The notes under the pieces: model-generated
Told to the model about the DNA's origin: nothing
Seen by the model: the letters and a program-made list of their open reading frames with translations, nothing else
The model's database searches: none
Program-made: the position numbers and the translations under genes
In this document: piece after piece, positions 6,408-17,054 of the stretch
Layout: the number at the start of each line of letters is the position of its first letter
How positions within the stretch are numbered: position 1 is the first letter of the stretch
From: Synechococcus sp.
GTDB taxonomy: Bacteria; Cyanobacteriota; Cyanobacteriia; Thermostichales; PCC-7336
DNA length: 31,529 nucleotides
Reading direction: 5' to 3'
Assembly: GCA_051439425.1 (NCBI GenBank)
Contig: JBFRWD010000126.1
Coordinates: 1 to 31,529, forward strand

Positions 6408-7175
6408 ATGACCTACTGTCTGGGAATCATCAACTCTAACGGCATTGTGATGGCAGCCGACTCCCGCACAAACGCGGGGCTAGACTACATCTCCACTTAC
6501 AACAAAATGTTCGACTTCTCGGTGCCGAACGAACGGGTTATTGTCATGTGCGCGTCAGGCAATCTCTCGATTACTCAGGGAGTTGTGAACCGTATCCAGC
6601 GAGAAATTGAAACTGAAGCCACTCCCAATCTCCATACCGTAGAAAGCATGTTTGATGTGGCGGCTTACATTGGCCGCAAGAGCCGCGAGGTCCAGGACAT
6701 CGACCGCCCTTGGATGGAAAAAGACAAAATCGATTTCCACTGCAACTTTCTGTTAGGTGGGCAGATTCGCGGAGAAGAGCCGCAGCTCTACATGGTCTAT
6801 ACCCAAGGGAATTTTATTCGTGCCACCCCCGAGACCCCTTTTTTGCAAATTGGCGAAATGAAATACGGCAAGCCAATTCTCGATCGCACAATTACGTACG
6901 ACACTCCAATTGAAGACATTGCCAAATGCGCGCTACTGTCGATTGACTCCACCATGAAATCCAATATTTCAGTCGGTCCTCCCATCAATCTCATGATGTA
7001 TAAAACCGACGAACTGGTGATTCAAAATACGCTGCAGTTGCGCTTGGGAGATCCGTACCTAGCCAAAATTCGCCGCCGGTGGGAAACATCGGTGCGAGCT
7101 GCGTTCGAGTCAATGCCTAATATCGAATGGCTGCGAGAGCCGGAACCCGTAGACGAAGAAATTATTATCGACTAG
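6408..7175 (+). CDS. Proteasome-type protease Anbu (Ntn hydrolase, T1 family)
   Basis: Starts M-T-Y-C (N-terminal catalytic Thr); ADSRTNAG; FLQIGEMKYGKPILDR; DSTMKSNISVGPP. Confidence 0.93.
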   Translation: MTYCLGIINSNGIVMAADSRTNAGLDYISTYNKMFDFSVPNERVIVMCASGNLSITQGVVNRIQREIETEATPNLHTVESMFDVAAYIGRKSREVQDIDRPWMEKDKIDFHCNFLLGGQIRGEEPQLYMVYTQGNFIRATPETPFLQIGEMKYGKPILDRTITYDTPIEDIAKCALLSIDSTMKSNISVGPPINLMMYKTDELVIQNTLQLRLGDPYLAKIRRRWETSVRAAFESMPNIEWLREPEPVDEEIIID

Positions 7176-7489
7176 ATTTCATGATTAAAAGATCGTAAAT
7201 TTTCCTTGCCCGTTTGAGTTTCTTTTGATACTAGCTATGTAGATTTTCAGAGATGAACCCTAGCTGTTTGTATTAAATGAATTCAACTTCGTGCAAGTTG
7301 CGACCTGAAAATCACTAGCTCTTCATCAAGCGTTGCAGTGTGCCTAAAATCTGTTATCTGGAATACGATTTTCGCGAGGCGATTGTGGCAGCTTAGTTTG
7401 GCTCTCGCGTTTAGGCAGAACTCGTGCGTAGTTAAGGGTCCATAGAACGGGGGTGTTTGAACTAGAGCGTACCGAATGGTTAGATCAGC

Positions 7490-8923
7490 ATGCTTCTCAA
7501 CGAATACGACCCCGAAGGCTTCTACGACGAATTATTTGAAACCAAAGGGGTGGCCAGAGAGCAATCAAGATCGCTGATTCAGTGGATGCAAGAGCTGGGC
7601 ATCGATCGCCTCAAGCGCCACCGGCAAACAGCAGAAATTGCACTCTATAACCTTGGGATTACGTTCAACGTATACGGAGATCGGCAGGGAGTAGAGAAAA
7701 TATTTCCCTTCGACATTATTCCGCGCATCATTTCTGCTGAAGAATGGTCTTGGATCGAGAGTGGATTGCAGCAACGCATCAAAGCCATTAATTGCTTTGT
7801 CTCCGATATTTACGGCGAGCAGCAGATTGTCAGTGAAGGGATTATCCCTGAGAACGTCATTAAGACAGCTCCTGGCTACCTGGAAGCATGTCAGGGGCTC
7901 AAGCCCCCCAACGGAATCTGGTGCCACATCTCCGGCACCGACCTAGTGCGCAACAGCGATGGCAAATGGTACGTCTTGGAAGACAACATTCGAGTGCCGT
8001 CAGGGGTGTCCTACGTGCTGGAAAATCGGCGGGTGATGAAAGCCACCTTTCCCGGTATTTTTCAGACCATGTCAATCAAGCCGATCGACGATTACCCAAG
8101 CCACCTGCTGGATACACTTCTGAACCTAGCTCCCCCCCACCTGCCCGATCCAACGGTCGTGGTGCTGACTCCGGGAGTTTACAACTCTGCCTATTTCGAG
8201 CATTCCTATCTAGCTCAGCAGATGGGAGTTGAGCTCGTAGAAGGGCGAGACTTAGTGGTGGCAGATGGCTACCTCCAAATGATGACCACTCAGGGGCTGC
8301 GGCGAGTGGATGTCATCTATCGCAGAATTGACGACGAATTCCTCGATCCAGAAGCGTTTCGCCCCGATTCCATGCTGGGGGTACCGGGGTTGATGGAAGT
8401 ATTTCGCCAGGGTCGAGTGGCGATCGCCAATGCACCGGGCACCGGAGTGGCTGACGATAAAGTCATTTATTCGTACGTTCCGGACATGATCCGGTACTAC
8501 CTCAGCGAAGAGCCAATCTTATCCAACGTGCCGACGTATTTATGCTGGCGAGCTGACGATCGCGAATACGTGCTCAACCACTTGCCCGAGCTGGTGGTCA
8601 AAGCAGCCAATGAAGCCGGCGGCTACGGAATGTTAATTGGCAATTCAGCATCCCCAGACGAGCTGGCAGAGTTTGCCCAAAAAATTAACGACAACCCGCG
8701 TAATTACATCGCCCAACCCATTCTCAGCCTTTCGCGAGTACCTACCCTGATCGACGGTAAAGTAGAAGGCCGCCATGTAGACCTGCGCCCCTATATCCTC
8801 AATCGAGGCGATAGCGTGTACGTACATCCGGGTGGTCTGACGCGGGTTGCCCTCAAAAAAGGATCGCTGGTGGTGAATTCATCACAAGGGGGGGGCAGCA
8901 AAGATACATGGGTTCTGTGTTGA
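7490..8923 (+). CDS. Circularly permuted ATP-grasp amidoligase
   Basis: VLEDNIRVPSGVSY, NSAYFEH, VDVIYRRIDD, ANAPGTGVADDK, RHVDLRP, GGLTRVAL...VVNSSQGGGSKDTWV. Confidence 0.93.
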   Translation: MLLNEYDPEGFYDELFETKGVAREQSRSLIQWMQELGIDRLKRHRQTAEIALYNLGITFNVYGDRQGVEKIFPFDIIPRIISAEEWSWIESGLQQRIKAINCFVSDIYGEQQIVSEGIIPENVIKTAPGYLEACQGLKPPNGIWCHISGTDLVRNSDGKWYVLEDNIRVPSGVSYVLENRRVMKATFPGIFQTMSIKPIDDYPSHLLDTLLNLAPPHLPDPTVVVLTPGVYNSAYFEHSYLAQQMGVELVEGRDLVVADGYLQMMTTQGLRRVDVIYRRIDDEFLDPEAFRPDSMLGVPGLMEVFRQGRVAIANAPGTGVADDKVIYSYVPDMIRYYLSEEPILSNVPTYLCWRADDREYVLNHLPELVVKAANEAGGYGMLIGNSASPDELAEFAQKINDNPRNYIAQPILSLSRVPTLIDGKVEGRHVDLRPYILNRGDSVYVHPGGLTRVALKKGSLVVNSSQGGGSKDTWVLC

Positions 8924-8957
8924 GCGCGGTTCTGTGTTGAACGCGGTTCTGTGTTGA
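8911..8957 (+). repeat. 17-bp-period tandem repeat, 3 x GGTTCTGTGTTGA, including the ATP-grasp stop codon
   Basis: Cores at 8911-8923, 8928-8940 and 8945-8957, separated by GCGC and ACGC. Confidence 0.9.
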
Positions 8958-9150
8958 GAGAGGGGCTCAGAAAATGAGCGGCATTGAAAGCTGAAGATTC
9001 CTAGCCAGGCTGACTGCAACGTCTTTGTGCAGAGGTAGCATCAACCGAAGTCAGCTTGACGAACTATTATTCTAGGAATGAGATAGCTTGTTGAGTATCA
9101 CATCCAAAATTGCAGGCCACAGTAGCTCCGGAATTCAGAGGCGATCGCGC

Positions 9151-10134
9151 ATGTTGAGTAGAGTCGCAGACTCCATTTACTGGCTCAATCGCTATATCGA
9201 GCGGGCCGAGAATGTGGCGCGATTTGTGGATGTCAATCTCAATTTGATGCTCGACTTGCCGTCGGAAATTTCCTCCCAGTGGCAGCCCTTGGTGTCGATC
9301 ACGGGCGATCTGGACCTCTATAAAGATATCTACGGCGATATCACATCCGACAACGTGATTCGCTTCTTAACGCTGGAGGAGGAATACCCCAATTCCATCC
9401 TGTCCTGCTTGATCAAAGCTCGCGAAAATGCCCGCTCCTGCCGCGAAACTATTTCCTCCGAGATGTGGGAAGAGGTCAACGGGTTTTACCACATGGTCAA
9501 GGGTGCCTCCCCCCAACAATCCCTCGACTATCTCCCCAGTTTTTGCAGCCAGGTCAAGCTGAAAAGCCACCAGTTTTGTGGAGTCATGGATTCCACGATG
9601 GCCCATAACGAAGGGTGGCATTTTGGGCAGTTGGGCCGACTGTTGGAACGGGCAGATAAAACCACCAGAATGTTGGATGTTAAGTACTTCTTGCTGTTGC
9701 CCTCAGCCCAATGGGTGGGGACCCCTCTCGATCAAGTTCAGTGGATTTCGTTGCTGAAATCTGCTAGCGCTTACGAGATGTACCGCAAGTGTCAGCATAA
9801 AATTGCTCCCGAGACTATTGCCGATTTCTTAGTGCTCGATCGCCAGTTCCCTCGCTCCATTTACTTCTGTCTCAAGCAAGCGGAAAACCACTTACACAGC
9901 ATCACCAACACCCCAGTGGGGACCTGGTGTAACGGAGCGGAGCGGGCATTAGGAAAACTCTGCTCTGAATTGGGATATATCGTGATTGCCGACGTGATTG
10001 ACACCGGGCTGCACGAATTTTTGGATGGACTGCAAAGCGCCATCAACACCATCGACGATCGCATTTACACGACGTTTTTATCGGTAGACAAATCCCGCTA
10101 TCTGCAGCCAACGTGGGGAAAAATCTCGCAGTAG
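9151..10134 (+). CDS. Alpha-E domain protein
   Basis: Family-typical start MLSRVADSIYWLNRYIERAEN (ATG 9151 preferred over TTG 9088); ARENAR; LGRLLERADKTTR; FPRS. Confidence 0.92.
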   Translation: MLSRVADSIYWLNRYIERAENVARFVDVNLNLMLDLPSEISSQWQPLVSITGDLDLYKDIYGDITSDNVIRFLTLEEEYPNSILSCLIKARENARSCRETISSEMWEEVNGFYHMVKGASPQQSLDYLPSFCSQVKLKSHQFCGVMDSTMAHNEGWHFGQLGRLLERADKTTRMLDVKYFLLLPSAQWVGTPLDQVQWISLLKSASAYEMYRKCQHKIAPETIADFLVLDRQFPRSIYFCLKQAENHLHSITNTPVGTWCNGAERALGKLCSELGYIVIADVIDTGLHEFLDGLQSAINTIDDRIYTTFLSVDKSRYLQPTWGKISQ

Positions 10135-10247
10135 ACTCTCGTTGCAGACAGATTTCTTAGTCGTAGTTAGCCCCGCCGCAGTTAGCCCCGTTGCCCCCAC
10201 GACAGGCGATCGCCTACAGTTCCCCTGCACCGGTACTCACTCGCGTA

Positions 10248-11132
10248 ATGCTCTATCAGATTTGCCACCAGACAACGTACTCTTACAGTCAACCGGTTCT
10301 CCTCAAACCCCACATCCTCAACCTACGCCCCCAGAGCAATAGCTGGCAGCACGTGCGAAGTTGTTCCATTCAGGTATCACCCTCTCCAGAATCACGCTCC
10401 AACTACACCGATTTAGATGGCAATAGTCCGATCAAGCTGTGGTTTGCTCAACCCACCCAATCGTTGAGTGTTCAAGTCACTTCCACTGTCGAAACTCTGC
10501 AATCCAATCCCTTCCTGTTTTTGCTGGAACCGTGGGCGATCGCTCTCCCCTTCAACTATCCTCAGTCTCTGCAATCCAGACTGTCCAGCTACCTACAGCC
10601 CCTCACCCCATCCATTCACCCTGCCGTTGTGGAGCTGGCCCATACGCTGCTACATAAAGTCGACGCCCAACCGCTGGACTTTCTCAACACGCTCAATCAG
10701 CACATCAATCAGTCCTGCACCTATATTCATCGCGCCACCGGTCGCCCTTGGTCTGCCGGAATGACATGGACTCAAAAGCAAGGCTCCTGTCGAGATTTGT
10801 GCGTTCTCTTTATGGAAGTCTGTCGACAAGTGGGGCTGCCTACGCGGTTTACGAGCGGATATCAGGAGGGAGATCCGGACGCCGCCAATGACCTACACGC
10901 TTGGGTGGAGGTGTATTTACCAGGGGCTGGCTGGCGAGGATACGACCCAACGTTGGGATTGGCGGTGAGCGATCGCCATGTCACTCTCAGCGCATCGGCT
11001 CTTCCACAAGACGCAGCACCCATCATTGGCACATTTATTCCAATCGATCCGGTCGAGCACAGAAAATCACCAGTCAATTCATCTATAAAGGCGCAAATTC
11101 TATTAGAAGTGATGTCTCAGTCCAATCAGTAG
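10248..11132 (+). CDS. Transglutaminase-like protein with bacterial transglutaminase N-terminal domain
   Basis: MLYQICHQTTYSY start (ATG 10248); catalytic triad in GSCRD, HAWVEVYLPGAGW and GYDPT. Confidence 0.92.
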   Translation: MLYQICHQTTYSYSQPVLLKPHILNLRPQSNSWQHVRSCSIQVSPSPESRSNYTDLDGNSPIKLWFAQPTQSLSVQVTSTVETLQSNPFLFLLEPWAIALPFNYPQSLQSRLSSYLQPLTPSIHPAVVELAHTLLHKVDAQPLDFLNTLNQHINQSCTYIHRATGRPWSAGMTWTQKQGSCRDLCVLFMEVCRQVGLPTRFTSGYQEGDPDAANDLHAWVEVYLPGAGWRGYDPTLGLAVSDRHVTLSASALPQDAAPIIGTFIPIDPVEHRKSPVNSSIKAQILLEVMSQSNQ

Positions 11133-11207
11133 AAATGACATCTGGTGTGCTGATTTAGTCAGCGATATCCATATTGGTCACTTCCTGCCAGCTTTTGAAT
11201 TGCTTGC

Positions 11208-11529
11208 TCATCGTTTCGCGATATTCAGTTGCTGTGAGTTCGTGTTGATTTGTACCTCAACTTTGTCCAAATGCCATTTTTCAGAAGGCTTTGGACATCG
11301 TCGACTTAGTTGTTTGGCATAGAACTGAACGAACTTGCGGCACCAGTAGCGGATGACTTCATAAGTTACGCTGATGCTGCGATAGTTAATCATCTTCTCG
11401 ATATCTCGGTAGCTCAGAGAAAACCTGTAGTATAGCCAGACACAGTACGCGACGATCTCGGAGGGGAAGCGATGACGCTTGTAACTGATGCTCATCCTCA
11501 AAGCCTCACACAGAGTGGATTGCAATGCC
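11208..11529 (-). mobile_element. Truncated IS6-family element (N-terminal transposase fragment from ATG 11495)
   Basis: YKRHRFPSEIVAYCVWLYYRFSLSYRDIE...YEVIRYW...KWHLD is the IS6 transposase N-terminus; similarity breaks just after WHLD. A degenerate end GGCATTGCAA starts at 11529 on the minus strand. Confidence 0.85.
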
Positions 11530-11561
11530 GATGAGTTAACTCGTCAATCCCCCCAAATAGC

Positions 11562-11726
11562 TCATCGCCAATTACTACCTTCTGTTTGATCTAAGATGCC
11601 TTTCCAAATAGTGAAATCAGAGCTATCAACAATCTTGGGTAAATTCTCATTTCTACTTAGCCCACCAACAATGACTTCAGCTTCAGTCTCAGAAAGTTCG
11701 AGCCAAATAGGAGTTGTCTTGTCCAT
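11562..11726 (-). CDS. Double-glycine-leader precursor peptide P1 (54 aa; not in ORF track)
   Basis: Hand translation: MDKTTPIWLELSETEAEVIVGG | LSRNENLPKIVDSSDFTIWKGILDQTEGSNWR*. The leader matches the C39-cleaved GG consensus. Confidence 0.8.
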   Translation of the reverse strand: MDKTTPIWLELSETEAEVIVGGLSRNENLPKIVDSSDFTIWKGILDQTEGSNWR

Positions 11727-11868
11727 TGGAGTAGCAGAAAACGCATCAATAACAACCTATGGCGACGGTTGCCTGCAGGCAGTGATGACTGTCACAGTCC
11801 TGCATTGAGCCCTGTCACCGCGCCATCAGGATATCTGCCACAAACTGGTACATAGTTTCCGGATTAAA

Positions 11869-12251
11869 GTGGTGTACTTTCAAGAATTTAAGACTACTGA
11901 ACTGTTTGGAGAGCTTAACAAAAATCAAGCTGAAATAATACAAGATGGCTGCAATATTGGTATGCCACCAACAGTTAGAAAAACTGATGAAAACCACGAT
12001 AAGTAGATTGATGCACTAAGCATTGATTGGGGCTAGATTCCCAAGCTAAGTTGCTTCCAGCGTTGATCCTGACCATTGAATTCTTTCTCGGAAAAACCTC
12101 GCCGATACCTGGCACCGGACACTTCCCTGAAACTGGTGTTTTTCTCGTTCCCCAATCTTTTCTCAAGGCTACAGTTGATTTAATACTGAAGCCTTGTTTG
12201 TTTGCGATGGTCACCTCTCTTGGTCTCCCAGCATTGCCAAAACTGTGCTGA
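11869..12251 (+). pseudogene. Degraded double-glycine-leader precursor P2
   Basis: VVYFQEFKTTELFGELNKNQAEIIQDG | CNIGMPPTVRKTDENHDK*IDALSIDWG. GG is changed to DG (GAT at 11944), there is a TAG at 12004, and a probable 1-nt deletion in the G-run at 12029-12032 would join it to the ORF-track frame 12027-12251. Confidence 0.65.
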
Positions 12252-12385
12252 ATACGTGGAGACAGAGAGCATTTGATTGTCGTGGAAGACTCTCGGTCAG
12301 GTGCTGAGAAATCTGAAGGGGGGCGTCCACCTTTGCTGCGCTGTAATGAAGCTTTTCAAAGTTCTACGCGACTCTCTAGATATTT

Positions 12386-12416
12386 CCTTATCATGTTAGA
12401 TAAGGGTTTAAGGAGG
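12386..12416 (+). promoter_or_regulatory. Inverted repeat CCTTATC-N6-GATAAGG followed by the AGGAGG ribosome-binding site of P3
   Basis: Palindrome at 12386-12405; AGGAGG at 12411-12416, 5 nt before GTG 12422. Confidence 0.5.
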
Positions 12417-12421
12417 TTTCC

Positions 12422-12655
12422 GTGAGTGTAGATTTGTTGATTCAAGATATATCTGAAGTTGATGCCGAGAAAGTTTCAGGTGGATTGTTACTGCCGGCAG
12501 TTCAAGCTGCGAGAGAGGCTGCGAGAAGGGCTCCTGTACGTAGCCGTGGTTTTGGAGCCTTTTCGATTAAGGTAGTTCGTCGTATTGCCGAGAGTGGCTT
12601 GAGAGATGGGGCGCAGAGGTTTGTCGTCTGGTTTGGAGACAGTCCTGCGCATTGA
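12422..12655 (+). CDS. Double-glycine-leader precursor peptide P3 (77 aa)
   Basis: Strong RBS plus GTG start; leader LLIQDISEVDAEKVSGG; core starts LLLPAVQAAREAARR. Confidence 0.85.
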   Translation: MSVDLLIQDISEVDAEKVSGGLLLPAVQAAREAARRAPVRSRGFGAFSIKVVRRIAESGLRDGAQRFVVWFGDSPAH

Positions 12656-12743
12656 TGATTAAAGGACAAAACCTTAAAAAGGAAAGGTGTGGGGTTAGTA
12701 GGATAAACATCCCAAAACGAATCCCCCATGAAGGAGGTGGACC

Positions 12744-12881
12744 GGCATTGTCAACTTAAATTTTCTGGTAAGAGATAGTCGAGAATGAATGCATTGAGTC
12801 AGCGAGAGAATAGACTTTGCAGAAGATGAATTGAAATTCTTCTAAATAACAAGGACTGTTCTTAGTTAAGTTGACAGTGCC
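12744..12881. mobile_element. 138-bp miniature IS6-type element (MITE)
   Basis: 16-bp terminal inverted repeats GGCATTGTCAACTTAA (12744-12759) and TTAAGTTGACAGTGCC (12866-12881), 15/16 match, IS6-like ends; no transposase and no flanking duplication. Confidence 0.8.
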
Positions 12882-13217
12882 TCTAGAACGACTCGAAGCA
12901 CAAGTCCAAGAACTTCAAGCCATCAAAGGCTTACAAACGGGTACTCAAGACGTACCGGTATAACTAGTTATAACTATCCAACCTGAGTTGAAAGACAAAG
13001 GCATACGTCATAACGACCTGTTCGATAAGAAAGGCTGGTCTGGCAGCAACGTAGCCAGTGGCGTGCAGAGGAAAGGTACGCCAGTCAGTTGAGTCAATAG
13101 GGACCAAGACCGATTAGACAAAGGTACCGAGAGACTCGCAAAAGAGGGTGTGGCATCCTCCAGTACAAGACCAAAGTTAGCTGCGTTGAAAGGTGGTTAC
13201 TACTTCAAGCAGACTAG

Positions 13218-13451
13218 TCAAAAAAAGTGAAAGTTGTTGTAGTTGAAGTAGACACGGTCTTTCGGGAGTCGCGTACTAAAGGACTCACCAAAAGAGTAGC
13301 TGAAAGCCTTGCGGTAGAAGAAGTTGTCCGGCGTTCTAGTCTGCTGCTGTCTCTTTCTGGCACGCCTTAAACGCCTTACACCACCGCCGGAGATAAATTG
13401 TGCAGAACACTCATCTATGTCCTCGAAGAGGGCAAGTTTGTTATTGGGCAT
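13218..13451 (-). CDS. Double-glycine-leader precursor peptide P4 (77 aa), co-oriented directly downstream of hlyD
   Basis: Leader MPNNKLALFEDIDECSAQFISGG; cationic and aromatic core; 76 bp after the HlyD stop. Confidence 0.85.
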   Translation of the reverse strand: MPNNKLALFEDIDECSAQFISGGGVRRLRRARKRQQQTRTPDNFFYRKAFSYSFGESFSTRLPKDRVYFNYNNFHFF

Positions 13452-13527
13452 AGCCTAAACTTGAATTCTGCTTCTAGATAGCAATAATGCTAGCACCGCC
13501 AATTAAAAGGTTTTGTTGCTGGGGTCA

Positions 13528-14904
13528 TCAAAAATTACTCAGTAGCCTTGCTCGTCTGAGGATAAAGCTCATGACAGACTCTCTGTCGGTCTCAATATCG
13601 AGCCGTCCCTCCATGCCGGGCTGAATTGAACACCTTCGACCTTGGGATATCATTTCCAAAACGGTTGGTTGTATTTGGACTTTGTAGAAGCCATCGGAAA
13701 TCGTAGAAGCACTGCTATCTTGCGGCCCTTCTCCAGCATTCAATATCGACACATCTGGAGCGATTGAGGATACAGTCCCTTGCAGCGTTCCAAAGTCTGG
13801 ATATGGACAGCTGCTGACTCTCATCTGCCCTGTTTGTCCTATCTCCAGCCAATTAATATCGCGGGATGCCACGTAAGCTTCAATCACAAGCTCCGTATTT
13901 GCAGGGGCAATTGTGGCAATTTCCTCTCCTCTCTCAACGACTTGATCGATATTCCTTAAATTCAGCTGCTGGATAATTCCCCCTATAGGTGCTCTCACCA
14001 CCGTCTTTTGTAAGTCATCTTCCACCTGCGCCAAATCATCTTCTTCCTGCAGAAGCAGCTCTTCTAACTCCAACTGTTCTTTTAATAAAGCCTCTCGCTC
14101 TCGCCTCAGTGCGGCCAAGTTCGCCAAATTGCTAGAGCGTATCTGTTCCAGTCGTTCGGATGCTCGGTTGACCGAAGACTCGCTGGGATTCAAAGCAGCT
14201 CTGGCTCTTTCTAAGCGTGCTAAAGCGGCATTGTAAGAAGCCTCCCGTTCCAGCACCTGTAATTGAGAGACTCCACCGGATTGGGCTAGCTGTTGGTAAC
14301 GCTGATATTCTTCTCTGGCTAATTCAACTTCTGCCTCCACCGCATCCATATCTGCTTGAGTCACTAACTGACGCTCGCGGAAGTCTCTTTGTTCGAGTTC
14401 CAGCTCGGCCTGATAAGCAGCCGCATCGCGCTCTGCTGCCTCTGTTTGAGCCTCAATCTGCCCATCGAGAGTATCCAACTCACCGCTGAGACGCTCTAAC
14501 TGTTCTCGGCCTCTCTCTAAGCTGGTTTCCAACTGTCGTTGCCTGGTGAGTAATTGAGAGTCATCGATGGTCACCATCACATCTCCTCTTTCAACACGTT
14601 GATTTTCCTCGACGGCAATCTGTTCGACAGTTCCTTCTGCAGTCGCTTGAACCAGCCGTAAATCTCCAGCGGGTCGAATCCTCCCAGTTGCCTGCACGGT
14701 AACCCGATACGGCAAAACGGCAGAGAGCCCGACGGCTCCTACAAATCCGATTAACATGGCAAGCCCCCCTACAGTGGGCCATTGACCGATGGGAGGGAGA
14801 AAATCCCCAACGGCAGCTGGAGGCGCTAGCGCCGGTTCATCCGTTGGATCTAACAGCTGGTAGGAGACGTCGTAAGTGTGCTCTTCTTGTTCGTTACGTT
14901 CCAT
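13528..14904 (-). CDS. HlyD-family membrane fusion (periplasmic adaptor) protein
   Basis: Single TM helix; lipoyl-like halves (VEENQRVERGD, VRAPIGG); long coiled coil; YPDFGTLQG; IQPGM. Confidence 0.93.
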   Translation of the reverse strand: MERNEQEEHTYDVSYQLLDPTDEPALAPPAAVGDFLPPIGQWPTVGGLAMLIGFVGAVGLSAVLPYRVTVQATGRIRPAGDLRLVQATAEGTVEQIAVEENQRVERGDVMVTIDDSQLLTRQRQLETSLERGREQLERLSGELDTLDGQIEAQTEAAERDAAAYQAELELEQRDFRERQLVTQADMDAVEAEVELAREEYQRYQQLAQSGGVSQLQVLEREASYNAALARLERARAALNPSESSVNRASERLEQIRSSNLANLAALRREREALLKEQLELEELLLQEEDDLAQVEDDLQKTVVRAPIGGIIQQLNLRNIDQVVERGEEIATIAPANTELVIEAYVASRDINWLEIGQTGQMRVSSCPYPDFGTLQGTVSSIAPDVSILNAGEGPQDSSASTISDGFYKVQIQPTVLEMISQGRRCSIQPGMEGRLDIETDRESVMSFILRRARLLSNF

Positions 14905-14906
14905 CT

Positions 14907-17054
14907 TTATCCCCCAGGCAAAAAGGCACGATGGTCACCCGGTCTATCTCGTAATTCTTTAGGAGTTCCCCGCAGTTTCAGCTCGCCTTTGTCTAACAAA
15001 ACGATATAGTCTGCCCTCTGCACCACACTTGGTCGATGGCTGATCAGAATGGTTGTCTTCCCTTGTCGAAACTTCAGCAAGCGGTCTAACACTTTAGACT
15101 CGGAGACGGGGTCTAGAGCCCCTGTTGCTTCGTCCAAAATAAGAACTGGCGGATTAATCACCAAAGCTCTGGCAATCGCCAATCGTTGCTTTTGTCCTCC
15201 GGAGATATTGGCTCCAAACTCACCCAATACCGTCTTGTATTTATTCGGCAACTCGCAAATAAACTCATCTGCCATGGCAATCCGACAGACTCCGACCACC
15301 TGCTCTAGGGTAATGCCGGGATAAGCCAGTCTGAAATTATCGAAGATGCTCCGACTCCAGAAATGGGGCTCTTGAGAAACGAGAACCACCTGTTTTCGAA
15401 GACTGCTGAGTGCGATGTCCGCTTGATTGAAATGGCCGAAGCGAATGTTTCCAGCCTGAAGTTCGTATAACCCTGCCAACAGCTTGGCTAATGTACTTTT
15501 CCCGCATCCGGACTGTCCCACTAAAGCCGTAACTTTCCCTCCAGGAATGAGCAGGTCGAAATCTTTGAGCAAGGAAACCCGACCGGCATGGTGAAAATTC
15601 AGCTTCGAACAAACGATATCCCCATCTTCGGCAATCCGGACTCGAGAACTAGGGTCATCACCAGATTGTTCGGGGTTTGCATCCAATACTTCACCGAGAC
15701 GTTGAACGGCGACTTGAGCGATCACAAACTCATCGATTAACCCAACAGACAGAGCAAGGAATGCGAGGAAGTTTCCACTCATTCCATTGAATGCAATGAG
15801 CTGTCCAATGCTGAGCTGGCCACCAATCACAAAGTAGCTACCCATCCACAGCAGAGCAATCGTAATCAGACTGGATATAAATTCCGTCAGGGTGGAGCTG
15901 TAGAGATTGAGTTTGGTGGTTATCCACTGGAGGTTGGCCAACCGTCCGAAATTGAGCTGATACTCATCCCATACTTGAGGAGTGGCAGACGAAGTTTTCA
16001 GAACCATCGCCCCTCGAAAGGTTTCAACGAGGAATCCTTGGTTCTCGGAACTTTCGACAATGAGTTGACGATTCTTCTGTCTCAAGGCGGGTAGAAATAG
16101 CAAATTCAGCCCCCCCATCAATCCAAAAGCTAGTAGGGAAGCGATGGTTAATTTCCAGCTGTAGAGAAACATCAAGCCTACTGAGACGAGCGCCACGAAT
16201 AGCTGGCTGGGAAGCCCCAACACTAACTCGGCAACAAATTCATTTATCAGCCGAACATCCGCCAACCGGCTGACCACTTCTCCACTTCGATGCGAATCAA
16301 AGTAAGACAAGGGAAGTCTGAGCAGTTTGTAACCATAGTCGAGAGTTAACCCCAGCTGTAATCGCTGGCCAAATTGTCCGATCAAGTGGGCTTGCGCTAA
16401 CCCTATAGCTGTACGGAACACGTTCATCCCGATAATGGCCGTGGCGACGGTGAAGAGCAGCTGTGTGTCTCGACGAACCAGGACGTCGTCGGTGAGCAAT
16501 TGCATGGCCACTGGCATGGCCAAAGCCAGTAGACCAATGGCGACATTGATAGCGATTGCTTCCAACAGGATCTGACGATAGGGCCAGACTCGTCTGGCAA
16601 AGCGACCAACAGTGCTGACGGTGTCCTCCAACTGTTCGTAGAATCGTTCCTCATCGGGTAGCAGCAGCAACATCACACCGTTGTTCCACCCCTCCACCAA
16701 TTGCTGCCTGGTGAGGGACCTCAGACCGTGAGCGGGATCGGCGACGATGTATTTCTGACGTTTTTTCCCGTATAGAACTACCCAGTGCTGACCTTTCCAG
16801 TGCAGAACAGCAGGGAGAGGCGCTTCTTCAATCCGATCGACTAATTCGGGCTGGGCTTGGACATGACGGGCATTAAACCCTAATGTTTCAGCACCTCGTT
16901 TCAATCCCAGCAGAGTTGTTCCTTGAGTGCCCGTTCCTACAGCCTCGCGAGTACGAGTGAGGGAAAAAGTTCGACCGTAGAACTTCGCTACTGTGGCCAA
17001 ACACGCAGCTCCACAATCCTCTTCACTTTGTTGGCGTACTACTGGGTATTGCAT
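14907..17054 (-). CDS. Peptidase C39 domain-containing ABC transporter (PCAT, SunT/LagD type)
   Basis: QQSEEDCGAACL (catalytic Cys), HWKGQHWVV (His), ADP; TM domain; Walker A GQSGCGKST, signature ISGGQKQR, Walker B LILDE. Confidence 0.95.
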   Translation of the reverse strand: MQYPVVRQQSEEDCGAACLATVAKFYGRTFSLTRTREAVGTGTQGTTLLGLKRGAETLGFNARHVQAQPELVDRIEEAPLPAVLHWKGQHWVVLYGKKRQKYIVADPAHGLRSLTRQQLVEGWNNGVMLLLLPDEERFYEQLEDTVSTVGRFARRVWPYRQILLEAIAINVAIGLLALAMPVAMQLLTDDVLVRRDTQLLFTVATAIIGMNVFRTAIGLAQAHLIGQFGQRLQLGLTLDYGYKLLRLPLSYFDSHRSGEVVSRLADVRLINEFVAELVLGLPSQLFVALVSVGLMFLYSWKLTIASLLAFGLMGGLNLLFLPALRQKNRQLIVESSENQGFLVETFRGAMVLKTSSATPQVWDEYQLNFGRLANLQWITTKLNLYSSTLTEFISSLITIALLWMGSYFVIGGQLSIGQLIAFNGMSGNFLAFLALSVGLIDEFVIAQVAVQRLGEVLDANPEQSGDDPSSRVRIAEDGDIVCSKLNFHHAGRVSLLKDFDLLIPGGKVTALVGQSGCGKSTLAKLLAGLYELQAGNIRFGHFNQADIALSSLRKQVVLVSQEPHFWSRSIFDNFRLAYPGITLEQVVGVCRIAMADEFICELPNKYKTVLGEFGANISGGQKQRLAIARALVINPPVLILDEATGALDPVSESKVLDRLLKFRQGKTTILISHRPSVVQRADYIVLLDKGELKLRGTPKELRDRPGDHRAFLPGG

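Follow-up and report, generated by a model that had tools for sequence, protein, structure and literature searches.

A DUF1559 pilin-like segment behind a double-glycine leader in a Synechococcus peptide gene and its relatives

The P3 gene and its export locus

The window analyzed here is an entire contig of 31,529 nucleotides (JBFRWD010000126.1, C126 in our numbering) from the genome of a Synechococcus sp., a 4.8-Mb draft in 182 contigs whose five Photo_RC matches identify it as cyanobacterial. We detected in it a small gene, P3, that encodes a peptide with a double-glycine (GG) leader, and directly behind the two glycines stands a 15-residue segment that is a hallmark of DUF1559 proteins, a pilin-like family of Planctomycetes. 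The same design recurs in at least 77 proteins, and P3 is very probably a member of an exported family of DUF1559-derived GG-leader peptides.

The translation of P3, MSVDLLIQDISEVDAEKVSGG-LLLPAVQAAREAARR-APVRSRGFGAFSIKVVRRIAESGLRDGAQRFVVWFGDSPAH, consists of a leader, the 15-mer, and a tail (Table 1). The leader ends in ..KVSGG and falls within the range of double-glycine leaders (~15-30 residues, ending in GG or GA/GS). In such leaders, positions -4, -7, -12, and -15 are hydrophobic and the residue around -8 is acidic; P3 agrees with this consensus in having V-4, A-7, I-12, I-15, and D-8. The glycine codons occupy 12479-12484 and the 15-mer begins right after them, leaving a predicted mature peptide of 56 residues that is cationic. 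A degenerate DNA pattern for GG plus the 15-mer matched once in the window and in none of 100 shuffles, and the six-frame translation of the 4.8-Mb genome contains the 15-mer a single time. Modeling of P3 with AlphaFold2 (alignment A1, mean pLDDT 57) placed a helix at residues 25-36, making the motif the sole part predicted to be helical. Neither P3 nor its mature part matched Pfam or NCBIfam at E ≤ 10, and tblastn searches of its own genome with P3, its leader, and its tail found no paralogue. Elsewhere in this genome, an open reading frame (ORF) with a GG leader (contig C92, 29990-30205, + strand; leader ..LEPIDDVMAEKINGG/LTLP..) is identical to P3 at 10 of 19 leader positions (E 0.6), and the leader of P3 could be of a type that the host genome already contained.

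About 0.9 kb downstream of P3, on the opposite strand, lies a gene for an HlyD-family adaptor, followed by the gene for a Peptidase-C39/ABC exporter (PCAT); both components expected of the surroundings of a PCAT substrate are thus present. The N-terminal domain of the exporter keeps ..EEDCGAACL.., ..QHWVVL.., and ..VADP.., whose Cys, His, and Asp we take to be the catalytic residues, and the HlyD gene also matches TIGR01843 at E 1.5e-56, which lies under the model cut-off. Judging from this anatomy and gene order, P3 is most likely cleaved after Gly21 and exported by the adjacent PCAT and HlyD proteins. P3 is flanked by two more small ORFs that have GG-type leaders, and this exporter probably serves several peptides. 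Their cores are unrelated to that of P3: one is very basic and rich in aromatic residues, and the other weakly matches the cyanobacterial CTB family (NF038167), which shares its host phylum and type of export locus with P3. P3 itself had no match to this family at E ≤ 10, and the ORF at 13218-13451 had no family match. The GC (guanine plus cytosine) content drops to 0.44-0.45 at 11-13 kb of the window, compared to 0.51 genome-wide, and the IS6 fragment at the edge of this low-GC region is a hint that the peptide genes sit on an insert that is mobile or has been rearranged. A promoter and terminator scan of 11100-13600 yielded nothing decisive.

Table 1. Features at and around P3, in positions of the window
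Feature	Position	Strand	Basis
P3 gene, 77 amino acids plus stop, double-glycine-leader peptide	12422..12655	+	ORF list; own protein record P0001
AAGGAGG, Shine-Dalgarno-like, five bases 5' of the P3 GTG start	12410..12416	+	direct reading
P3 leader MSVDLLIQDISEVDAEKVSGG, 21 residues, GG at -2/-1	12422..12484	+	ORF translation
15-mer LLLPAVQAAREAARR, predicted mature N-terminus, Pirellulales-type DUF1559 segment (pilin positions ~19-33)	12485..12529	+	
P3 tail APVRSRGFGAFSIKVVRRIAESGLRDGAQRFVVWFGDSPAH, 41 residues, arginine-rich, orphan, without confident fold	12530..12652	+	
Peptidase-C39/ABC_membrane/ABC_tran exporter (PCAT)	14907..17054	-	Peptidase_C39, E 1.4e-34
HlyD-family membrane-fusion adaptor, directly downstream of the PCAT gene	13528..14904	-	HlyD_3, E 5e-22
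Second small ORF with GG-type leader (..ECSAQFISGG/G..), adjoining the HlyD gene	13218..13451	-	by reading
Third small ORF with GG-type leader (..ELSETEAEVIVGG/L..)	11562..11726	-	weak CTB-family (NF038167) match, E 0.066
Truncated IS6-family transposase, edge of the low-GC peptide region	11208..11525	-	model positions 1-81 of 202

The DUF1559 segment

The 15-mer of P3 is a signature of DUF1559 proteins. In two proteins annotated with both PF07963 and PF07596 (P0017 and P0020) it stands right after GFTLVELLVV, and in one annotated with PF07596 only (P0031) it follows GFTLIELVV. In Aeoliella straminimaris (G408), a member of the Pirellulales, PF07596 matches number 114 and the 15-mer occurs 44 times in exact form, and in an alignment of 18 Aeoliella paralogues the motif residues were largely invariant. 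Compared with solved structures, DUF1559 proteins align at their N-terminus with the alpha-1 helix of GspG and type IV pilins, which puts the 15-mer near positions 19-33 of the mature pilin, in the region of the conserved proline. DUF1559 proteins form the largest paralogue group of Planctopirus limnophila, with 68 genes of which two are essential, and passages of the same report call them "apparently restricted to Planctomycetes" (PMC10632474). Elsewhere DUF1559 is described as a family of solute-binding proteins "exclusive to the PVC superphylum" (PMC4807772), and one plasmid-borne copy is on record (PMC5352709).

Beyond the 15-mer, P3 has none of the features that define DUF1559 (SBP_bac_10) proteins. 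It lacks a PF07596 match, the prepilin cleavage and methylation motif, the hydrophobic alpha-1-N helix, the body, and the terminal H-X9-DG domain (TIGR04294), and an acidic GG leader precedes the motif where DUF1559 proteins have the prepilin motif and helix. The genome of its host likewise gave no PF07596 match at E ≤ 1, and the only GFTLIELL pilin of that genome lies elsewhere and lacks the 15-mer. A DNA pattern for LLPAVQAAREAAR matched 1 of 401 cyanobacterial genomes, this being the host itself, and none of the 400 other Cyanobacteriota. The first-pass annotation of this sequence had described a foreign pilin segment of the kind that follows the N-methylation helix of DUF1559 proteins, set exactly behind a bacteriocin-type GG site, lacking both helix and body and unlikely to match by chance. 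The ORF translation, the annotated DUF1559 proteins and Aeoliella copies, the empty family searches, the shuffles, and the cyanobacterial survey bear this description out in each of its parts.

The same annotation had considered that P3 might simply be a truncated transferred DUF1559 gene, which is not the case, since the remainder of P3 does not align with DUF1559. MAFFT placed RDGAQRF of the tail under DGSVRF of its relatives, as if the tail were a diverged H-X9-DG hairpin, but profile scores ruled this out. A C-terminal model from 20 Aeoliella proteins returned no score for the tail; with a model of 14 family tails the score was -0.2 bits, which 639 of 2000 shuffles also reached. Directly after the motif P3 reads APVR (12530-12541), as do two pilin-type proteins (P0015 and P0016) that continue ..APVRQQPE... 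By back-translation from protein only, APVR might be what the usual DUF1559 continuation (..QC.NNLKQ..) yields in the +1 frame, and the P3 tail might then begin as a frameshifted DUF1559 remnant.

We also observed, in a Pirellula metagenome-assembled genome (MAG; locus L049), a protein with a DUF1559 body that contains GG-LLLPAVQAARESAR and has an N-terminus without the usual prepilin motif.

A recurrent family of GG-leader motif peptides

Searching by shared words with P3 as the query brought up small metagenomic proteins whose leaders and tails vary but whose GG-LLLPAVQAAREAAR(R/S) is identical. In metagenome contigs, a degenerate pattern for GG plus the motif found nine loci, seven of which encode leader peptides (host GC 0.48-0.73) and two of which are true DUF1559 genes with a chance GG at that place. 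The exact GG plus AA-type motif, that of P3, had no match in a collection of 185,579 species genomes, and the relaxed pattern GGLLLPAVQ matched at least 119 loci in species genomes, mostly by chance. Among the matches listed, this relaxed scan revealed a second type, GG-LLLPAVQKVREAAAR (KV-type), in named MAGs of Blastocatellia (L027), Acidobacteria (L104), Hydrogenedentota (L066), Verrucomicrobiota (L072, plus a variant in L051), Erythrobacter (L093), and Rhodospirillales (L119). A profile (A1) built from 16 peptides was used to score the 8000 candidates sharing most words, with the best 120 listed. The proteins retrieved numbered 134: at least 77 GG-leader peptides, 42 pilin-type DUF1559 fragments, and 15 other forms. 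The GG-leader peptides divide into 49 of KV-type (LLLPAVQKVREAAAR) and 28 of AA-type (LLLPAVQAAREAARR), a recurrent family with two lineage-matched variants that the first-pass annotation had missed.

We define this family by a GG-type leader, 0-5 further residues, LLLPAVQ(AA or KV)REAA, and the absence of a DUF1559 body, at a length under ~125 residues (median ~60). P3 fits this definition and, having no further DUF1559 blocks in its tail, is a member of the motif-plus-orphan-tail kind. Across P3 and 15 others aligned with it, the GG, LLLPAVQ, and the first Arg are invariant and the following E, A, and A nearly so. Source names, where given, were Erythrobacter, Alphaproteobacteria, Pseudomonadota (two), Lysobacterales, and Hydrogenedentes MAGs. 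The peptides are not covered by any model of Pfam or NCBIfam (E ≤ 10 for P3); the leaders of its relatives weakly match Bacteriocin_IIc, ComC, and cerein-type models. The mature parts are often small, with sizes of 16-20 residues common, and 21 of the 77 peptides stop within ~8 residues after the 15-mer, which suggests that the motif is the functional unit.

In five independent settings the peptide gene has exporter genes as neighbors. These are a C39-ABC exporter and HlyD in the window; cNMP-binding/C39/ABC in L010 and an ABC exporter in L012, which together count as one setting; cNMP-binding/C39/ABC in L013; HlyD in L027; and HlyD plus C39-ABC in L093. P3 resembles double-glycine bacteriocins and pheromones exported by PCAT and HlyD proteins in its leader of ~20 residues, its C39 exporter, and its fusion partner, and like them it lacks an obviously dedicated modification enzyme. 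It differs from them in a core that is unlike any Pfam or NCBIfam family and copies a pilin-like segment of another phylum, and in having no recognizable immunity gene or sensor nearby. Compared with each of the seven other AA-type loci, the window differs at 11-16 of the 16 codons for GG plus LLLPAVQAAREAAR, and none of these differences changes an amino acid. On this codon evidence, the motif is under strong purifying selection.

The two peptide types correspond to the DUF1559 signatures of the two planctomycete genomes compared. Aeoliella has no KV-type copies beside its 44 of AA-type, and a Gemmataceae MAG (G409, 52 PF07596 matches) has 27 KV-type and no AA-type copies. Of eight producer genomes searched, five had no PF07596 match (G000, G401, G402, G405, and G406), with the 114 and 52 matches of the planctomycetes as positive controls, and three had weak matches to its N-terminal part (16 in G403, 15 in G404, and 2 in G407). 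The motif pattern occurs once each in G401, G402, G403, and G405, always in the peptide gene, and twice in G406, where the second occurrence (LLPAVQRERE) looks like chance. GG plus LLLPAVQxxREAA matched none of 200 other Planctomycetota genomes, the sole match being a pilin-type gene of Aeoliella itself. The motif is thus abundant in one phylum, within a membrane-anchored pilin-like family, and appears to be exported bare by other phyla that otherwise make no use of it.

Several relatives of P3 keep more of DUF1559 than the 15-mer. Twelve of 56 longer tails scored at least 10 bits against an H-X9-DG model of 20 Aeoliella proteins (P0095 at 41.7 and P0071 at 32.3), none of 11,000 shuffles exceeding 9.8 bits, and one peptide (P0009) matches TIGR04294 at E 0.0013. 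Other tails repeat ITDGTSNT, an internal DUF1559 block. The presence of these blocks indicates that the family descends from DUF1559 genes, in which a GG leader replaced the prepilin signal and membrane helix and the body was deleted to varying degrees. For P0095, a DUF1559 protein in miniature, an AlphaFold2 model (alignment A3, mean pLDDT 57) showed only the motif as helical. Two further proteins (P0069 and P0078) have a GG leader, the KV motif, and a normal start of the DUF1559 body (..SCSNNLKQ..) that runs to the end of the contig, and there may be full-length DUF1559 proteins in which a GG leader takes over from the prepilin signal.

Capture of a pilin segment, as the first-pass annotation had proposed, therefore fits the family as a whole; P3 itself was probably acquired as a ready-made GG-peptide gene. 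The low local GC, the IS6 fragment, and the atypical codons of P3 all point to such lateral acquisition. Its GC content at third codon positions is 0.38 (12422-12652), compared to 0.56 in the long ORFs of the genome, and the three motif arginines are all AGA or AGG, codons that make up 11% of arginine codons in those long ORFs. The 45 nucleotides of the motif, which had also been suggested as a tracer of the donor, show no particular closeness to the planctomycete copies examined: they differ from ten Aeoliella copies at 12-19 of 45 bases, the Aeoliella paralogues differing from one another at 7-15.

The high-GC AA-type gene always adjoins a DUF7059/MTS methyltransferase gene (L008, L010, and L015). 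Closely related organisms may simply share this gene order, or the enzyme may modify the peptide, which has a conserved Gln; as a lead only, this methyltransferase resembles mostly Actinomycetota clusters. Several of the tails of P0002-P0008, P0035, P0047, P0072, P0097, and P0123 (KHGGEIEIESWSLG, ..SFSLNFTKI..) look somewhat like Hcp, a likeness that no tool confirmed. For the KHGGEIEIESWSLG tails of the high-GC subfamily, a reading as the start of Hcp found no support: Pfam gave nothing at E ≤ 10 for P0002, P0003, and P0008, and a PDB sequence search found only a designed protein (E 1.4). The H-X9-DG model did not match these tails either. In a Rhodobacteraceae MAG (L089, 2722-3096), one gene product starts with a match to the C-terminal end of T6SS_HCP (E 5e-4) and ends in GG-LLLPAVQAAH...

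One subfamily has lysine-rich rather than acidic leaders (..KDLKPKKDAKGG) and a mature part of the KV 15-mer plus G, GG, or SG and little else (P0049, P0050, P0052, P0056, P0059, P0061-P0064, P0070, P0075, P0076, P0079, P0085, and P0087; L051 and L072); one member comes from a Lysobacterales MAG. In P0014, P0018, P0019, P0077, P0099, P0102, P0033, P0101, P0040, P0083, and P0084 the motif stands behind Sec-type signal peptides or is doubled, sometimes as a shortened copy (LLLPAVQSAH.., LLPAVQKAQDFHF), which suggests that other delivery routes exist for the same DUF1559-motif module.

Proposed function and competing explanations

The best overall explanation, to which we give about an even chance, is that P3 is an exported DUF1559-derived mimic aimed at planctomycete pseudopilin systems by a mechanism that we infer. 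The C39 exporter and HlyD would cut P3 after Gly21 and export it, releasing a 56-residue peptide that starts with an exact copy of the invariant alpha-1 segment of Pirellulales-type DUF1559 pseudopilin-like proteins. Outside the producer, this peptide could act as a competitive mimic of one segment common to 50-100 DUF1559 paralogues and jam the assembly machinery or docking partner that reads it, and neighboring Planctomycetes would be antagonized through blocked attachment or nutrient capture. We propose that the segment is frozen because it serves many paralogues, and that the mimic is invariant across producers for this reason. In Pseudomonas, the kinase PilS senses PilA, a case in which the conserved N-terminal segment of a pilin is read by the cell's own regulatory and assembly machinery. 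As a working analogy, a free copy of such a segment could compete for its readers, although PilA and PilS act within one cell and membrane, whereas the P3 copy has no membrane part, is predicted to be exported, and would act across phyla.

Given the distribution of the motif, mimicry is a plausible function, but we regard the antagonistic mechanism itself as tentative, and would sooner doubt than accept it. A yet more specific version, that the peptides are cross-phylum weapons with lineage-matched copies (AA against Pirellulales, KV against Gemmataceae) that jam 50-100 paralogues at once, is possible but somewhat unlikely. The producers would then be cyanobacteria, Acidobacteriota, Alpha- and Gammaproteobacteria, and probably Actinomycetota, all without DUF1559, and the target could not easily escape because the segment must co-evolve with all its paralogues.

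Several observations weigh against a planctomycete-directed mimic. An organism name accompanies only 8 of the 77 peptides, all named producers are MAGs in which mis-binning is possible, and most family members come from short metagenome contigs. There was no exporter within 3 kb of the peptide gene in L066, L072, and L051, and the lineage match rests on one genome for each planctomycete lineage. The weak N-terminal PF07596 matches are pilin-like proteins of the Hydrogenedentota and the two Verrucomicrobiota producers, so a producer-side role is possible there. For P3, target and activity are proposals drawn from sequence, the peptide would have to cross the outer membrane of its target, and with an orphan tail P3 could act through that tail rather than the motif. 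A complex prediction of mature P3 with residues 30-340 of an Aeoliella DUF1559 protein scored 0.00, which, being without controls, is evidence neither way.

P3 could instead be a general membrane-active cationic bacteriocin, for which the DUF1559 helix, inherited by capture, is merely a convenient amphipathic, Ala/Arg-rich N-terminus and the Arg-rich tail the active part; any killing would then be independent of DUF1559 systems. Its cationic mature form with the motif as the only predicted helix would suit this, as would the other GG-leader ORFs at the locus, typical of bacteriocin islands, and the name "bacteriocin-like protein" given to two relatives by JGI (Joint Genome Institute). We nevertheless consider it unlikely: a generic helix would drift, yet the 15 residues stay constant while their codons are scrambled, and they exist in exactly two versions, those dominating the two planctomycete genomes compared. 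Moreover, 21 of the 77 members have almost nothing beyond the motif, and others add DUF1559 blocks rather than typical bacteriocin cores.

Less probable again is a signal or regulator of the producer itself, in the manner of a ComC-type peptide pheromone, or a cue that benefits another species rather than antagonizing it. Pheromones are known among the short, unmodified PCAT substrates with GG leaders, the leader in the Rhodospirillales MAG (L119) matches a pheromone model (E 1.4e-4), the common mature sizes would fit, and three producers have pilin-like proteins of their own. Pheromones diversify between strains, however, whereas this motif is identical across several phyla and host GC of 0.45-0.73; the 31.5-kb window contains no sensor histidine kinase or response regulator, and five of the eight producers have no DUF1559-type protein to regulate.

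That P3 is a functionless, decaying or neutral remnant of a transferred DUF1559 fragment, by chance in frame with a leader-like sequence, is very improbable. Its low-GC position beside the IS6 fragment, its orphan tail, and the APVR it shares with P0015 and P0016, if this is indeed a frameshifted continuation, would be expected of such a remnant, but P3 has a strong ribosome-binding site and an intact frame of 77 codons, and its leader-GG-motif design recurs throughout a family under purifying selection with exporters linked in five contexts, the same junction also occurring in a contig of a second study. An assembly chimera of cyanobacterial and planctomycete reads at the GG/motif junction, which the first-pass annotation had raised as a caveat and for which we found nothing beyond the genome being a 182-contig draft, is extremely unlikely, since contigs of two studies labeled marine sediment metagenome bridge the junction (contigs rather than raw reads were compared; one from run X1, possibly the source sample but assembled independently, agrees with the window without a difference over 11900-13300, and one of 151 bases from run X2 spans 12420-12567 with 1 difference and holds leader, GG, and motif) and the motif codons (AGA, AGA, AGG; TTG, TTA) differ from GC-rich planctomycete copies at 10-14 of 15.

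Whatever their activity, these peptides form a new family, probably PCAT-exported, whose content is copied invariant blocks from a protein family of another phylum, for which we found no precedent. The literature searched holds no mention of the motif string and no link between double-glycine peptides and planctomycete pilins. If P3 and its relatives do mimic DUF1559, they would be, to our knowledge, the first bacteriocin-type peptides to copy a conserved part of a structural protein family that belongs to the target itself. That putatively exported peptides keep only invariant DUF1559 blocks under purifying selection implies that these blocks are read by something accessible from outside, and the family could be a natural reagent for finding that partner. 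If the mimicry is real, the peptides would also mark the functional hot-spot of DUF1559, the largest uncharacterized protein family of Planctomycetes, and could serve directly as a probe of it; should DUF1559 proteins be pseudopilins for nutrient capture, a single mimic could shut down many uptake routes together. Surfaces and sediments are often shared by Cyanobacteria and Planctomycetes, and such mimicry could therefore bear on who colonizes whom. At 16-60 unmodified residues, the peptides make the idea testable with synthetic peptides on Pirellulales and Gemmataceae.

The remaining genes of the window are ordinary chromosomal ones (Omp85, M3 peptidase, an ATP-grasp/Alpha-E/transglutaminase set, HtrA, MurG-like, enoyl-CoA hydratase-like, and ABC-2 transporter). 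Sets of ATP-grasp, Alpha-E, and transglutaminase genes have been proposed as peptide or protein modifiers. The adjacency of this set to P3 may be coincidental; its proteasome-like, circularly permuted ATP-grasp, Alpha-E, and transglutaminase-like genes stand in a row at 6408-11132 (+ strand), just upstream of the peptide region.

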